Sequence record: MK373793.1
From: Escherichia phage vB_EcoS_MM01
Direction: 5' to 3' (one strand)
DNA: 43,157 nucleotides
Below the pieces are notes generated by a model. That model was given only the letters and a program-made list of their open reading frames with translations. It was not told where the DNA came from and made no database searches. A program made the position numbers and the translations under genes. Within the stretch, counting starts at the first letter, position 1. Each line of letters opens with the position of its first letter. Positions 14,114-19,719 of the stretch are shown one piece after another.

Positions 14114-14788
14114 TTGAATTGGAGGTGTATTATTGCTCATTTATCAAATGGCACGCAGGTCTTCGTAGAAGGCTCTCGCGGAGCTGTAATTGACGTAACT
14201 GCAATTTCTAACGCAGTTACCCCTGTTTTAACTGTATCTGATGCGTCCGGCCTGGTTGTTGGTGACTATCTTCTGTTTACCGCTTCAGCTTCCACGCTAC
14301 TTGCTGACAAGCAAGTTCGAGTAACGGCAATCACTGGCACTTCAGTAACTGTTGAAGGTATTGATACCTCTAGTACTACAAAGTTCCCAGCTGGTTTAAC
14401 TGGTGAAGTTGTCAAGATTACTTCCTGGTTCGAAGTTCCTTGCGTTCAGGATGTATCTACTGATGGTGGCGAACAGCAATTCGTTAACTTCCAGTGTCTT
14501 TCTGACGACCGTGAACAGCAGATTCCTACTTATAAGTCTGCGGTAACGAATACCTTCACCTTTGCTCATGAGTACACTAACCCGGTTTATCCGGTTCTGC
14601 GTAACTACGATGAGTCAGGTCAGGTTGTTGCGATTCGTCTGTTCGTCCCTCGCGCACAGGAAATGCGTTTACAGTCCGGCACTATCGCTTTCAACGACAC
14701 GCCAACCATTGGCGTTAACGAAATCGAAACCGTATCAATTGCTGTATCCATTCGTGGTCGACTGTCCTCGGTTGCTGCTGAAGTCTAA
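14114..14788 (+). CDS. major tail protein
   Basis: 224 aa before chaperone and tape-measure genes; start uncertain (track TTG 14114; GGAGGTG RBS at 14121-14127 suggests in-frame ATT at 14129/14132). Confidence 0.6.
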   Translation: MNWRCIIAHLSNGTQVFVEGSRGAVIDVTAISNAVTPVLTVSDASGLVVGDYLLFTASASTLLADKQVRVTAITGTSVTVEGIDTSSTTKFPAGLTGEVVKITSWFEVPCVQDVSTDGGEQQFVNFQCLSDDREQQIPTYKSAVTNTFTFAHEYTNPVYPVLRNYDESGQVVAIRLFVPRAQEMRLQSGTIAFNDTPTIGVNEIETVSIAVSIRGRLSSVAAEV

Positions 14789-14792
14789 AAAC

Positions 14793-14816
14793 AAACCCTC
14801 TTCGGAGGGTTTTTTA
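14793..14816 (+). terminator. rho-independent terminator
   Basis: ccctc-ttcg-gaggg hairpin plus T6. Confidence 0.65.
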
Positions 14817-14897: not shown

Positions 14898-15284
14898 ATG
14901 AAAGTAATCATCGCAATTATGGCAACCCTGTTACTTGCTGGTTGCAACACAGACAAGGTTAAGACACTTAATGTTGATCTGACCTCAAATGAATGCAAGA
15001 ACATCGTATACAGCGCGACTGTTAACAATGAATCATTTACTCGGCTTTCATTCAAGCACCCGGAACTTAAAGAAGCTGTTATGTATGTGTCCCACATTGA
15101 GTGCACGAAATCTGTTAACAATTTTACACGTGGTGTTGTAATTGAACGCACTACAACATTGGCAAAGGTATCAAAGCCTAGTGACGCCTCAATTGAGATG
15201 GTTTATACTAAGCTATACAATTTAGAAGGTTTCGCTAAGGAAGTTGGCGAGAAGCTGGCTTACTCACGCGTTGTTATAAAATAA
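14898..15284 (+). CDS. lipoprotein (moron in tail module)
   Basis: N-terminal signal peptide with lipobox LLAGC; AT-rich; own motif A/B unit upstream. Confidence 0.7.
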   Translation: MKVIIAIMATLLLAGCNTDKVKTLNVDLTSNECKNIVYSATVNNESFTRLSFKHPELKEAVMYVSHIECTKSVNNFTRGVVIERTTTLAKVSKPSDASIEMVYTKLYNLEGFAKEVGEKLAYSRVVIK

Positions 15285-15302: not shown

Positions 15303-15617
15303 ATGGCAAAGTTCAAACTTTCACTGGCAGCACTCCCTGACTTCAAGCTACCAGTAAAATTTAAGCTGGCTAACGACCAGGAAGTAGAAGTTATCTTTAC
15401 TGTCAAGCACAAGAAGACTTCTGAGCTTCAGGAGCTTTTACAGAAAGAAGAATTAAGCACTAAAGAACTAATCACGGCAATCGCATCTGATTGGGACCTT
15501 GAGGAAGAATTTAACGAAGATAACGTAAACGAGTTCGCAGACCTATTCCCTGCCTCAACGGTTGCGCTGACTACCGCTTATATGCAGGCGCTTGCTGGTC
15601 AGCGAGTAAAAAACTAA
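15303..15617 (+). CDS. tail assembly chaperone (lambda gpG-like)
   Basis: 104-aa ORF immediately upstream of tape measure gene; ends in slippery heptamer. Confidence 0.6.
   Translation: MAKFKLSLAALPDFKLPVKFKLANDQEVEVIFTVKHKKTSELQELLQKEELSTKELITAIASDWDLEEEFNEDNVNEFADLFPASTVALTTAYMQALAGQRVKN
15608..15614 (+). promoter_or_regulatory. -1 programmed ribosomal frameshift slippery site A_AAA_AAC
   Basis: heptamer AAAAAAC spans the last two sense codons of the G-like ORF; the -1 frame is open from 15614 into ORF 15626..15937. Confidence 0.55.
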
Positions 15618-15625
15618 AACGAGCG

Positions 15626-15937
15626 GTGTATCTACAGTACCAGTCAGAGCCAACTGATGCCGAACTGGAAGCTATTGGGATGCGCCGCTCTGATTACGAA
15701 GACGAAGAGCCTGAAGTTTTAAACTTCGACGAAAACATGATGAAAGCGTGGGACATTTATTGTTCAATGGCTACGCAGTGGAGAGTTGGAGCTAACGGAG
15801 CTACAGGGCTTGATTACAACGTGCTAAATTTCCTCTTTAGAGTGTATAATGTTTCTGAAGAAGAATTGGTGCTCAGCGATTTACGCATCCTTGAAGCTAA
15901 GGCTCTTGAGATGATGGATAACCTGAGAAAAAAATAA
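15626..15937 (+). CDS. frameshift extension of tail chaperone (gpT-like part of G-T fusion)
   Basis: -1 frame ORF contiguous with slippery site; conserved G/GT architecture upstream of tape measure. Confidence 0.55.
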   Translation: MYLQYQSEPTDAELEAIGMRRSDYEDEEPEVLNFDENMMKAWDIYCSMATQWRVGANGATGLDYNVLNFLFRVYNVSEEELVLSDLRILEAKALEMMDNLRKK

Positions 15938-15957
15938 CCCGCTTCGGCGGGTTTTCT
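15937..15957 (+). terminator. rho-independent terminator (leaky)
   Basis: cccgc-ttcg-gcggg hairpin plus TTTTCT. Confidence 0.5.
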
Positions 15958-15972
15958 ATTATGGAGGCTTAG

Positions 15973-18741
15973 ATGGCAACAAATGAATTAGCCGGAATCA
16001 CACTAGCCGTAGATGTCTCGCAGGTAGACAGGGGAACGCAGTCACTACAGAAGTTTAGGCAGGCTAACCAACAGGCCGCTTCCGGCATTAGTGAATTCGT
16101 CAACGCTGAGCAGGTTGCTAAAAACCAGGCGAGAGATACCGCGCGAGCACTTGCTGAGCAACAGGCCTCACTGGCTAAGCTGCAAACAGCCATTGATCCA
16201 ACCGCGGCAAAGTTCCGTAAACTCCAAGAGGCGGCGGTAGGTCTTGATAAGGCGTTCGCGGCTGGCGTAGTTCCTGATGAGGAGTTTTTCCGATTAGGTG
16301 AGGCGCTTGAAACGCAGAATGCAAAGCTAGCTCGCTCACGTGCGGCATTAACCGAAGAGGGTAGAGCGGCAGCGCAGGAAGCAAAGGATAAGTCAAAGGC
16401 AAAGGCTGAGGCAGATAGATTCATTGCATCACTGCAACGCCAGGCTCAAGCTGCAACATTGACGCGCGAGGAATATCTTAAGCTACAGGCGGCCCAGCTT
16501 GGCGTATCAGCGCAGGCTACACCATTAATTAACCAGATTGGCACTGCAACCCAGAGAACCGTTGAGAATCTTGGCAGGCAAGCCGCAGCATTCCAGAAGT
16601 CCGGTCTAAGCGCTGGTCAGTACAAGAATGCCATTAGTCAGCTACCAGCGCAGATTACTGACATTGGGACTTCATTGGCTGGCGGTATTCCTATCTGGTT
16701 AATTGCAATACAGCAGGGTGGTCAGATTAAGGATAGTTTCGGCGGCATCGCCAATACGGCGCGATTCCTGCTTTCTTACCTTACGCCACTAACCGCCGCC
16801 GCCGGTCTTCTTGGTGCTGGTTTCGCTTATGCAGCTGTTAGCATATACAAAAGCGAGGCCGCAATAAAGGAAGCGAGAAAGGCTATTGAGGATACACTTG
16901 GAGTTACAGGTGAATCCGCAAGAAAGCTAAGCATTAGTATTGCAAGGATCGCCGAGGCTTCAGACAAGACAGCTGAGGATATTACAAAGGCGTTCGTTTC
17001 AACAAGAGACGGAGCTCAGGAAGCAATCCTGAAACTCATTGATGTTGGTGTTAGCTACGAAGATGCAAGGGAGCTTGTTGAGAGATACAAAGACTCTTCA
17101 AACTTCACTCAGGTTAACGCTGAGATTGAAAAACACAGACTTGAAGCCGCAAAGATTAAAGATAGCTGGTTCGAGAACGCTAAGGCAGTTAGCTACTACA
17201 ATGATGTTGCGGTGCAAGGTCTAGTTAATTCGCCACTAACAAACGTTGCGGCAAGAAACAGCGCTGCAATTCAGGAGTTCGCAAGCCTTCTCGAGCAAGA
17301 TGTAAACAAAGCTCTAATTGATGGGAATAGATACGTTGCTGAGCAGGTTGATTTAATTGGTAAAGAGTACCTTGCACTTGACCGCGTGGCTGGTGCGGAG
17401 AAATCCCTTGCCGATGCAAGAAAGCAAGCTGCGGCTATTGCAAGAAGCGGTAATGCTGAAGCCATAGCTCAGGCTAATAGAGTAATTCAGCTTCGCCAGC
17501 GTGAACTTGATGAAGCCAAGAAGGCCGAAGCAGAGAGAAATAAGCCAGCCAAAACCAAAGCACCAAAGGAAGCCAGAGACCTTACCATAAATTACGAGTC
17601 AGGAGTTCTTGCGCTGGAGGCTCAATTAAGGCTGCTTAAGGATGTTGGGGGCCAGACAAAGGCGATAAGTACTGAGCGGAGGAAGCTACTTGAGGAAGAG
17701 GCTAAGTTTGCAATCCTTGAGGAGCGTCAGGCTGCTGGGACAATCGGCAGAGAGCAAGCAAGGCTTCTTCTTGAGAAAGATAAAGTTCTCGAGTTAGCCA
17801 GACAGAAGGCAGAGTTAGGCGATCAGATTGTTTTGCAGGAGAGAGCCAATAAGTTAGCCGAAGACAATAGGAAGAAGACTCTTCAGATTAACAACGAGGC
17901 AAATAACATTGATTTGGGTGCTGGTTTGTCATCTCGTGAACAGCAGAGGGCGAGAGAAATCCAGGCGCTTCAGTCCAATCAGGTTAATGCTGGCGGCGCT
18001 ATTGATGACGTAGATTTTACACAACTTCTAGAAGCAAGGCGTAACTTTTATGCTCAGGAAGATGCGCTACGTGAAAACTGGCTTGCTGGCGTGAATCAAT
18101 CCTTTGCCAATTGGGCTGAGAGCGCGACGGATGCCTTCTCAATTGCTGGAAGTTTAACCACAACCGTATTTGAGGGCATTACAGACCAGATTACCAACCT
18201 TGTAACCACTGGCGAAACAAACTTCAGGGAGTTTACTGTTAGCATCCTTAAGCAGATTGCTAAGATTGCAACCCAACTTCTTATTGTTAAGGCTATTGAG
18301 TCTAGCTTGAGTAGCTTTGGTGGTACTGGTGGCGCGATTGGCTCTATAGCATCTGCGATTGGTGGTGGATTTGCTAATGGTGGTTACACTGGCAGTGGCG
18401 GGAAATATCAACCAGCAGGCACGGTTCACAAAGGCGAGTTTGTATTCACAAAAGAAGCAACAAGCCGCATTGGTGTTAAAAACCTTTATGCACTAATGAA
18501 AGGCTATGCAAATGGCGGCGCTGTTGGTGGCTCTTCAGGATATGCAAATGGCGGCTTGGTTTCTGGTGGTTCAGATGTTAATGTTAGCGGCATTACTGTT
18601 AACGTTAATGGTGGAATTGGAAGCGACCCAGAACAGGCCAAGGCGCTGCAAAATGGCGTCAAGGCAATTGTAGCTGAAGAGATTTCTCAGTCCTTCCAGC
18701 AGGGTGGCCGTGCTTATCAGTACCTTAGAGGTTTTAACTAA
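15973..18741 (+). CDS. tail tape measure protein
   Basis: 922 aa, long Ala/Gln/Lys-rich helical region, Gly-rich C-terminus, position after G/GT. Confidence 0.8.
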   Translation: MATNELAGITLAVDVSQVDRGTQSLQKFRQANQQAASGISEFVNAEQVAKNQARDTARALAEQQASLAKLQTAIDPTAAKFRKLQEAAVGLDKAFAAGVVPDEEFFRLGEALETQNAKLARSRAALTEEGRAAAQEAKDKSKAKAEADRFIASLQRQAQAATLTREEYLKLQAAQLGVSAQATPLINQIGTATQRTVENLGRQAAAFQKSGLSAGQYKNAISQLPAQITDIGTSLAGGIPIWLIAIQQGGQIKDSFGGIANTARFLLSYLTPLTAAAGLLGAGFAYAAVSIYKSEAAIKEARKAIEDTLGVTGESARKLSISIARIAEASDKTAEDITKAFVSTRDGAQEAILKLIDVGVSYEDARELVERYKDSSNFTQVNAEIEKHRLEAAKIKDSWFENAKAVSYYNDVAVQGLVNSPLTNVAARNSAAIQEFASLLEQDVNKALIDGNRYVAEQVDLIGKEYLALDRVAGAEKSLADARKQAAAIARSGNAEAIAQANRVIQLRQRELDEAKKAEAERNKPAKTKAPKEARDLTINYESGVLALEAQLRLLKDVGGQTKAISTERRKLLEEEAKFAILEERQAAGTIGREQARLLLEKDKVLELARQKAELGDQIVLQERANKLAEDNRKKTLQINNEANNIDLGAGLSSREQQRAREIQALQSNQVNAGGAIDDVDFTQLLEARRNFYAQEDALRENWLAGVNQSFANWAESATDAFSIAGSLTTTVFEGITDQITNLVTTGETNFREFTVSILKQIAKIATQLLIVKAIESSLSSFGGTGGAIGSIASAIGGGFANGGYTGSGGKYQPAGTVHKGEFVFTKEATSRIGVKNLYALMKGYANGGAVGGSSGYANGGLVSGGSDVNVSGITVNVNGGIGSDPEQAKALQNGVKAIVAEEISQSFQQGGRAYQYLRGFN

Positions 18742-19194: not shown

Positions 19195-19719
19195 ATGGAA
19201 GAAATGCGTAGAGTTTGCAAGAAGTGCGGGGTAGAGAAGATTCATTCAGAGTTCGCAAAGCATAAGCAGTGCATGTTTGGTATAACTCATGAATGTAGAG
19301 TTTGTGCACTTAAGAGGTCTCAATACAGAACGCCAGATAAGCTGGCAATGAAATCAGAATACGACAAGAGAAGATATGAGAGAAGTTCAAAAAGGCAGAA
19401 AATAGATAGGGAATCTGACCCAGCGAAATACAAACTTTCAACATACAAAAGCTTTGATAAAAAGAGAGGTCTCAATTCTGACATAGACTACGAATTTGTT
19501 CTAAATGCAATAGATTCACCTTGCTTTTATTGCGGATTAAAAGATAAGCAAAATGTTGGGTTAGATAGAATTGAAAACTCAATTGGTCACATGAAGTCAA
19601 ACGTAGTTCCGTGTTGCTCATTATGTAACATGACAAGGGGTGATAGATTTACTCATGAGGATTTTAAAGAGTTTATAGCACCTTCAATAGCTAAATTTAG
19701 AGAGGCAAATAAATGCTAA
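19195..19719 (+). CDS. HNH endonuclease (free-standing, putative homing endonuclease)
   Basis: Cys-rich zinc motifs CKKCG...CRVC and HNH core CFYCG...GLDRIEN...GH...CCSLCN; AT-rich; inserted between M-like and L-like tail genes. Confidence 0.7.
   Translation: MEEMRRVCKKCGVEKIHSEFAKHKQCMFGITHECRVCALKRSQYRTPDKLAMKSEYDKRRYERSSKRQKIDRESDPAKYKLSTYKSFDKKRGLNSDIDYEFVLNAIDSPCFYCGLKDKQNVGLDRIENSIGHMKSNVVPCCSLCNMTRGDRFTHEDFKEFIAPSIAKFREANKC

Follow-up and report, generated by a model that had tools for sequence, protein, structure and literature searches.

Long-tailed phages need a short and a long tail assembly chaperone, in a fixed ratio, to attain the right tail length. The -1 programmed frameshift that produces gpG and gpGT of phage lambda was reported by Levin, Hendrix and Casjens (1993) and by Xu, Hendrix and Duda (2004, 2013, 2014), as those studies are cited in PMC5009743, and the G:GT ratio in lambda is ~30:1 (PMC5009743). 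In lambda, the tail tube gene and the tape measure gene are separated by two small ORFs, of which the second is in the -1 frame, and the heptamer G_GGA_AAG lies near the end of the first ORF, a few codons before its stop; a short chaperone is made together with a less abundant form that is extended at its C-terminus. The G/GT frameshift is already known for T1-like phages of the family Drexlerviridae as well. A joined "frameshift product" CDS is annotated in the genomes of OzMSK (PQ659294) and Sin4 (MK931442), the genome note of Stevie mentions a conserved frameshift (PMC4319613), and the Rogue1 paper hypothesised a G-T fusion (PMC3496638). No protein-level experiment behind the frameshift of OzMSK, Sin4, Stevie or Rogue1 was found, nor did the searched literature contain a fusion protein, a reporter assay or ribosome profiling for any member of Drexlerviridae. 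The gene names TfmA and TfmS retrieved unrelated papers only.

Two recoding sites of E. coli itself serve as further points of reference. A_AAA_AAC is the proven shift site of IS1 insA-insB' (cluster A_AAA_AAC_1; PMC4066793), at which an upstream and a downstream ORF are joined by low-efficiency -1 fusion. The heptamer of dnaX, A_AAA_AAG, is also an A-rich Lys heptamer, with a stable stem-loop beginning a few nucleotides beyond it and an upstream Shine-Dalgarno (SD)-like stimulator to assist it; re-pairing of tRNA-Lys is likely the core event.

The window analysed here is the whole 43,157-nucleotide DNA of Escherichia phage vB_EcoS_MM01 (MK373793.1), and all features discussed lie on its + strand. 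MM01 is an Rtp-like member of Drexlerviridae, a T1-like coliphage of the subfamily Braunvirinae. The 2-kb region of interest has 88-90% nucleotide identity to RobRod40, AugustePiccard and Rtp, and the first 25 kb is ~83-85% identical over ~70% of its length to ACG-M12, CEB_EC3a and others. Judged from its sequence, the tail assembly chaperone gene of MM01 very probably undergoes a -1 programmed ribosomal frameshift of the lambda G/GT type. The genes are orthologous to the tape measure chaperones of OzMSK, Sin4, Stevie and Rogue1, which makes MM01 another member of that set.

The gene order is tail tube, a lipoprotein-like ORF, G, T and tape measure. The major tail tube protein gene (14114..14788) is assigned by Pfam Phage_tail_3 (TTP; E 3.8e-68), and its counterparts are labelled major tail protein in RobRod40, OzMSK and 2725-N35. 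The G-like tail assembly (tape measure) chaperone ORF (15303..15617) begins with ATG, preceded 9 nt upstream by a GAGGA SD sequence (-5.8 kcal/mol to the anti-SD), and encodes a 0-frame product of 104 aa that matches PF08748 Phage_TAC_4 over its full length (E 1.2e-33, 116 bits against a cut-off of 21.1) as well as phrog_569 and positions 1-107 of phrog_17368. The T-like segment in the -1 frame (15614..15937, 107 codons plus stop), which would be read after the slip, matches Pfam PF08809 DUF1799 (E 2.6e-16) and positions 113-210 of phrog_17368, the latter being a single profile of 213 positions whose first half matches G. The tape measure protein gene (15973..18741) is recognized by Pfam TMP_2 (E 8.5e-32) and Tape_meas_lam_C (E 3.4e-20). 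It is followed on the 3' side by a gpM-like gene, an endonuclease VII/HNH-like gene, and L-, K-, I- and J-like ORFs assigned by position and size, so that the flanking M, L, K, I and J homologues of lambda are represented. The lambda gpG and gpT Pfam families have no match in MM01, where only Phage_TAC_4 (G) and DUF1799 (T) are found; the two phages share the G/GT scheme while belonging to separate sequence families. Searches of PDB and NCBIfam with the fusion sequence gave no match, and a homologous-protein search with it returned a single T-only match.

Several observations concern the surroundings of these genes. The ORF inserted between the tail tube gene and G (14898..15284) encodes 128 aa with a lipoprotein signal (MKVIIAIMATLLLAGC) and has no match in Pfam or PHROG. 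Its homologues occur in 4 of 50,697 phage records (Rtp rtp34, AugustePiccard, RobRod40 and, weakly, TR1), and an unrelated 249-nt ORF takes its position in other Rtp-like phages; the product may be a moron or a superinfection-exclusion lipoprotein. A terminator scan places a terminator-like hairpin with a T-run at 15936..15953, just after the T stop and outside the recoding signal, and the record of Klebsiella phage Sin4 has a terminator at the corresponding position behind GT. A second terminator-like GC hairpin with a T-run follows the tail tube gene at 14793..14812, and between them the two enclose the lipoprotein-G-T unit, upstream of the tape measure gene. The endonuclease VII/HNH-like ORF (19195..19719; phrog_1035, E 1e-26) lies between the gpM-like and gpL-like genes and is probably a homing endonuclease. 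In RobRod40, the HNH gene is located elsewhere, just before the tail tube gene.

The slip site can be read directly at the G/T junction. Positions 15606-15617 are GTA AAA AAC TAA in the frame of ORF 15303..15617 (15303 being divisible by 3), and the slippery heptamer A_AAA_AAC (15608..15614) occupies the last two sense codons, Lys-Asn, in the X_XXY_YYZ register. The first-pass annotation had placed the heptamer in the final sense codons of the G-like ORF, which holds, with the 0-frame stop TAA (15615..15617) directly 3' of it, no spacer intervening, and overlapping the -1 codons CTA AAA. In the -1 frame, a TAA at 15521-15523 is followed by an open stretch from 15524 to the stop at 15935-15937, so the proposal that this frame is open from the slip site through ORF 15626..15937 is likewise correct, that ORF being contained in the open frame 15524..15937. 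G and this open frame overlap by 91 nt, and counted from the heptamer the -1 frame is open for about 107-109 codons. After a slip, the reading would be CTA AAA CGA GCG GTG TAT CTA CAG, or L K R A V Y L Q, and the predicted G-T fusion comprises 211 aa.

Slippery strings as such are common in this genome: 144 strings of the form XXXYYYZ, of which nine are AAAAAAC, occur on the + strand in any frame. A survey of ~50 long + strand ORFs, about 10,900 codons in all, found 39 canonical heptamers in frame, and that at 15608 is the only one whose -1 reading extends more than 30 codons past the 0-frame stop, with a length of 106 codons. A second in-frame A-run, A_AAA_AAA followed by T, is present at the very end of the T ORF (15928..15934); its -1 frame runs for only 14 codons into the terminator, and no sign of a function was seen for it.

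The arrangement recurs across the relatives of MM01. A tblastn search with G retrieved 826 phage records, and 15 annotated loci together with 80 from IMG/VR were examined. CGN-GYA-AAA-AAC-TAA, followed by ~104-107 further codons of T in the -1 frame, is found repeatedly among them, in the T1-like, TLS-like, Hanrivervirus, Warwickvirus and Christensenvirus groups and in one Vibrio phage. Most Drexlerviridae junctions have the heptamer at this position. A_AAA_AAC with an adjoining stop is kept at 45-60% G identity across T1-, TLS- and Rtp-like, Hanrivervirus and Vibrio-infecting Drexlerviridae, while the G/T junction arrangement extends to ~70 unique relatives, down to ~40-45% G identity. The distance between heptamer and stop is zero in every heptamer-bearing relative, the stop being TAA in nearly all and TGA in two. 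In OzMSK the junction is identical, GTA AAA AAC TAA, and the arms of the downstream hairpin are the same. In two clades the heptamer is degenerate. The Webervirus junction is GCA AAA GTY TAA and that of Rogunavirus is GCA AAG GTC TAA; A_AAA and A_AAG, respectively, persist at the equivalent Lys codon, and each of these tetramers functions as a -1 site in E. coli, with the hierarchy A_AAG > U_UUY > C_CCY > A_AAA (PMC4066793). Since both clades keep the Lys tetramer, what the family has in common is a slip-prone Lys codon one before the stop. The gene order, the family assignments and this conservation across Drexlerviridae together bear out the conserved G/G-T arrangement upstream of the tape measure gene that had been put forward for MM01.

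The spacer following the site has two forms in Rtp-like phages, both encoding K-R-A: AAA CGA GCG in MM01 (15614..15628) and Rtp, and AAG AGG GCG in OzMSK and others (locus L001, 1866..1880). The latter creates an SD-like string, GAGGG, 3-4 nt before GTG, and turns one A-U pair at the hairpin base into G-U. The GAGGG before GTG, missing in MM01, is the only meaningful difference between MM01 and the OzMSK-type genomes.

The most informative evidence comes from the -1 frame itself. Across 83 unique junctions, a near-invariant L-K/R-R-A-V-Y-L is encoded by -1 codons 1-7 past the site, spelled with a wide range of synonymous codons (CGA, AGG, CGC and CGG for Arg; GCG, GCA, GCT and GCC for Ala; GTG, GTA, GTC and GTT for Val; CTA, TTA, CTG and CTC for Leu). 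The retention of the same residues through varied synonymous codons indicates purifying selection on the amino acids of the -1 frame. These residues come after the 0-frame stop, and the first ATG, GTG or TTG of the -1 frame is usually found 17-47 codons below the junction; hence LKRAVYL would be translated only by frameshifting from G. Nowhere is the whole fusion alignment more conserved than in ALAGQRVKN-LKRAVYL. This synonymous-codon conservation of LKRAVYL is the strongest computational argument for the frameshift. Part of the sequence conservation after the site could stem from protein rather than RNA constraint.

The same codons bear on whether T is instead made alone by internal initiation at GTG 15626 or ATG 15680, with no fusion formed and with the heptamer a product of chance Lys-Asn coding. 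The ORF listing gives a GTG-initiated ORF of 103 aa, G and T are given a CDS each in most public annotations, GAGGG directly precedes the GTG in about half of the Rtp-like phages (the OzMSK record notes an "independent RBS"), and some distant relatives have an ATG near the GTG position that gene callers use as the T start. However, GTG 15626 has no Shine-Dalgarno sequence in MM01: the preceding ACGAGCG pairs with the anti-SD at -2.2 kcal/mol with a spacing of 1 nt, compared with -9.3 for the tape measure gene. The GTG is the Val codon of LKRAVYL and is GTT, GTA or GTC in 72 of the 83 junctions, the conserved L-K/R-R-A residues lie upstream of it, and it is buried within the 5' arm of a hairpin of -34.3 kcal/mol. 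The position of ATG 15680 is Leu in most relatives. The starts of the separately annotated T CDSs differ and are non-homologous among relatives, as is expected from automatic gene calling. Independent initiation at GTG 15626, which the first-pass annotation had named as the outcome contrary to its proposal, is thus disfavoured by the lack of an SD, by the lack of conservation and by its location in the hairpin, and we regard internal initiation as a very unlikely source of T.

The frameshift product is predicted to differ in one residue from that first described. The peptide had been given as ...QRVKK-LKRAVYLQ..., of which LKRAVYLQ stands and VKK does not: classical tandem slippage predicts ...QRVKN-LKRAVYLQ..., because the A-site tRNA-Asn has already decoded AAC before the slip. 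Only two routes would yield the VKK-LKR junction: slippage of the P-site tRNA-Lys one codon before, or an additional A in the mRNA. An extra A would come about if RNA polymerase slipped on the six A's in some transcripts, whose normal translation would put T in frame and yield exactly the VKK-containing peptide. For bacterial RNA polymerase to slip productively, a run must be some 8-9 nt long or longer, and the MM01 run, with only six, is below this length. Homopolymer A or T runs are indeed known transcriptional slippage sites in bacteria (reviewed in PMC5009743). Nevertheless, Webervirus and Rogunavirus have the same G/T layout with only four or three A's; runs this short cannot sustain polymerase slippage and still permit tRNA-Lys re-pairing. 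Moreover, the exact codon register, the C of the heptamer and the structure 6-7 nt downstream are features of a ribosomal rather than a transcriptional signal. Transcriptional slippage is accordingly rated as slightly less probable still than internal initiation.

Homopolymer runs are also error-prone in sequencing, and an indel in the sequence or assembly would imply that G and T are truly one ORF, or a decaying gene that T is a dead remnant. Four public relatives, MN840485 2725-N35 (locus L002, ~1858), NC_049820 2019SD1 (L015/L087, ~1010), L024 and L067, have A5 instead of A6 at the slip run. In these, G is extended by 13-18 codons in the +1 frame and T is left in the +1 frame; that is, the A5 variants do not bring T into frame, and they are most likely homopolymer undercalls in the deposited genomes. 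In Salmonella phage 36 (L009/L083), further frame breaks are seen inside G. A natural in-frame G-T fusion was sought among 1.84 billion representatives. Of the best 150 matches examined, 149 were G-only or T-only, and the remaining one (P0017) is a single 206-aa ORF comprising Phage_TAC_4 and DUF1799 on a GC-rich, low-coverage metagenome contig (L096, 173..793; ENA ERZ27336856 NODE_101157). This ORF has no slippery site and is missing ~7 junction residues. It is one contig of 811 nt at 2.6x coverage with 29% identity, and at such coverage a natural fusion and an assembly error look alike. By contrast, the A6C-TAA junction with T in the -1 frame is found in more than 70 independent genomes from many sequencing groups, and T is under clear purifying selection. 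An indel or gene decay is therefore the least probable of the alternatives to ribosomal frameshifting.

In -1 frameshift signals of the dnaX/IS911 type, a stimulatory RNA structure is expected to be stable and to start ~5-9 nt 3' of the slippery site. In MM01, a long, irregular RNA hairpin is predicted at 15621..15690, separated from the heptamer by a 6-nt spacer, with a minimum free energy of -34.3 kcal/mol in a fold of 15615-15700. None of 200 dinucleotide shuffles is as stable (z -5.4), nor is any of 1000 synonymous recodings of the T frame (z -4.3); codon permutation gives z -4.1, and only one of 1486 genome windows of equal size is as stable. The pair probabilities are 0.83-1.0 in a 241-nt context. 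Among 11 Rtp-like sequences, the paired columns are invariant or show A-U/G-U and G-C/G-U changes only, while the spacer and apical loop vary. Of the 70 nt in the hairpin stretch, 4 are variable; the median for windows of this size across G-T is 14, and the stretch is the regional minimum. No compensatory double change was found in the 11 sequences, and with covariation absent the case for the hairpin is one of thermodynamics and suppressed variation. On this modelling, the hairpin is likely a frameshift stimulator in MM01.

Other stimulators were considered as well. The Rogue1 paper suggests a pseudoknot (PMC3496638). For MM01, a pseudoknot was rejected, as pairing of the hairpin loops with the 80 nt that follow is negligible (-1.8 kcal/mol at best). 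No upstream SD-like stimulator, which in dnaX/IS911-type signals lies about 10 nt 5' of the slippery site, was found in 15585-15607, where the best anti-SD duplex (-3.1 kcal/mol) abuts the site. Rfam returned no match to a frameshift-element family, only a sub-threshold rsmX on the terminator (E 0.27).

The downstream structure differs between lineages. T1/TLS-like relatives lack the long hairpin and have a local one, GGGCGGUUUAYCUG-N6-CAGAARCCGCCC, 6-7 nt past the heptamer; covariation in this T1-type hairpin was zero in 24 sequences, no better than in shuffles. Weberviruses have a third version of the hairpin downstream of the site, and the downstream structure is not significant in Rogunavirus, TR2 and the loci L029, L056 and L062. 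Taken together, these observations can be accommodated, tentatively, in a scheme in which lineages have remodelled the 3' stimulator around an unchanged site and spacing: a short local hairpin would serve T1/TLS-like phages, whereas in Rtp-like phages the same 5' arm would pair ~55 nt downstream to form the 70-nt hairpin. The hairpin and the invariant "shifty stop" would then offset the weak heptamer and set the G:GT ratio, and Rogunaviruses and Weberviruses would have moved to a tetramer-only Lys slip. The scheme is one possible reading, held with less than even confidence.

The comparison with the described systems can be drawn more closely at this point. Like lambda, MM01 has two small ORFs between the tail tube and tape measure genes, with the second in the -1 frame, a heptamer near the end of the first, and a predicted short chaperone accompanied by a rarer, C-terminally extended one. 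It differs in the heptamer (A_AAA_AAC instead of G_GGA_AAG), in that the heptamer abuts the stop rather than preceding it by a few codons, and in the predicted strong 3' hairpin. IS1 shares with MM01 the heptamer, the host translation machinery and the joining of an upstream and a downstream ORF; no stimulator is established for it (PMC4066793), in contrast to the stable hairpin predicted in MM01, and its transposase is unrelated to the tail chaperone. With dnaX, MM01 has in common an A-rich Lys heptamer followed by a stable stem-loop, and it differs from dnaX in lacking the upstream SD-like stimulator and in having C rather than G as the last base, which makes the heptamer far less shifty in E. 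coli (PMC5009743).

In the mechanism that we propose, the majority of ribosomes would end at TAA and release the 104-aa chaperone encoded by 15303..15617, while a minority would slip back by one base on the A-run 15608-15613, resume at CUA and continue to 15934 to give the 211-aa G-T fusion. The slip would take place with AAA and AAC in the P and A sites, or with AAC in the P site and the slow UAA in the A site. The hairpin 15621-15690, positioned at the entrance of the mRNA channel, would resist unwinding and thereby lead the tRNAs to re-pair one base back, and the adjoining stop, being slowly decoded, probably aids the slip. As the Webervirus and Rogunavirus relatives keep the Lys tetramer only, a P-site slip of tRNA-Lys may be the core event. 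A_AAA_AAC is a low-efficiency site in E. coli, yet it shifts at >0.1% without stimulators (PMC4066793). The yield of GT may consequently be small, and such a weak heptamer is in keeping with a requirement for GT as a minor fraction. If the parallel with lambda holds, the tape measure protein would be bound through the G part common to both products and the tail tube protein recruited through the T part; for tails to assemble correctly, GT would then have to be kept at a small, fixed ratio to G.

Most public relatives carry G and T as two separate entries, named "hypothetical" or "tape measure" proteins; in MM01 they are best annotated as one slippage gene, join 15303..15614, 15614..15937. With the G/GT frameshift already known in T1-like phages, the mildly new element here is limited to the lineage-specific downstream hairpin together with the invariant adjoining stop. 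A heptamer that is weak in E. coli, an adjoining stop and a lineage-specific hairpin make the Drexlerviridae a natural series on the tuning of weak shift sites.
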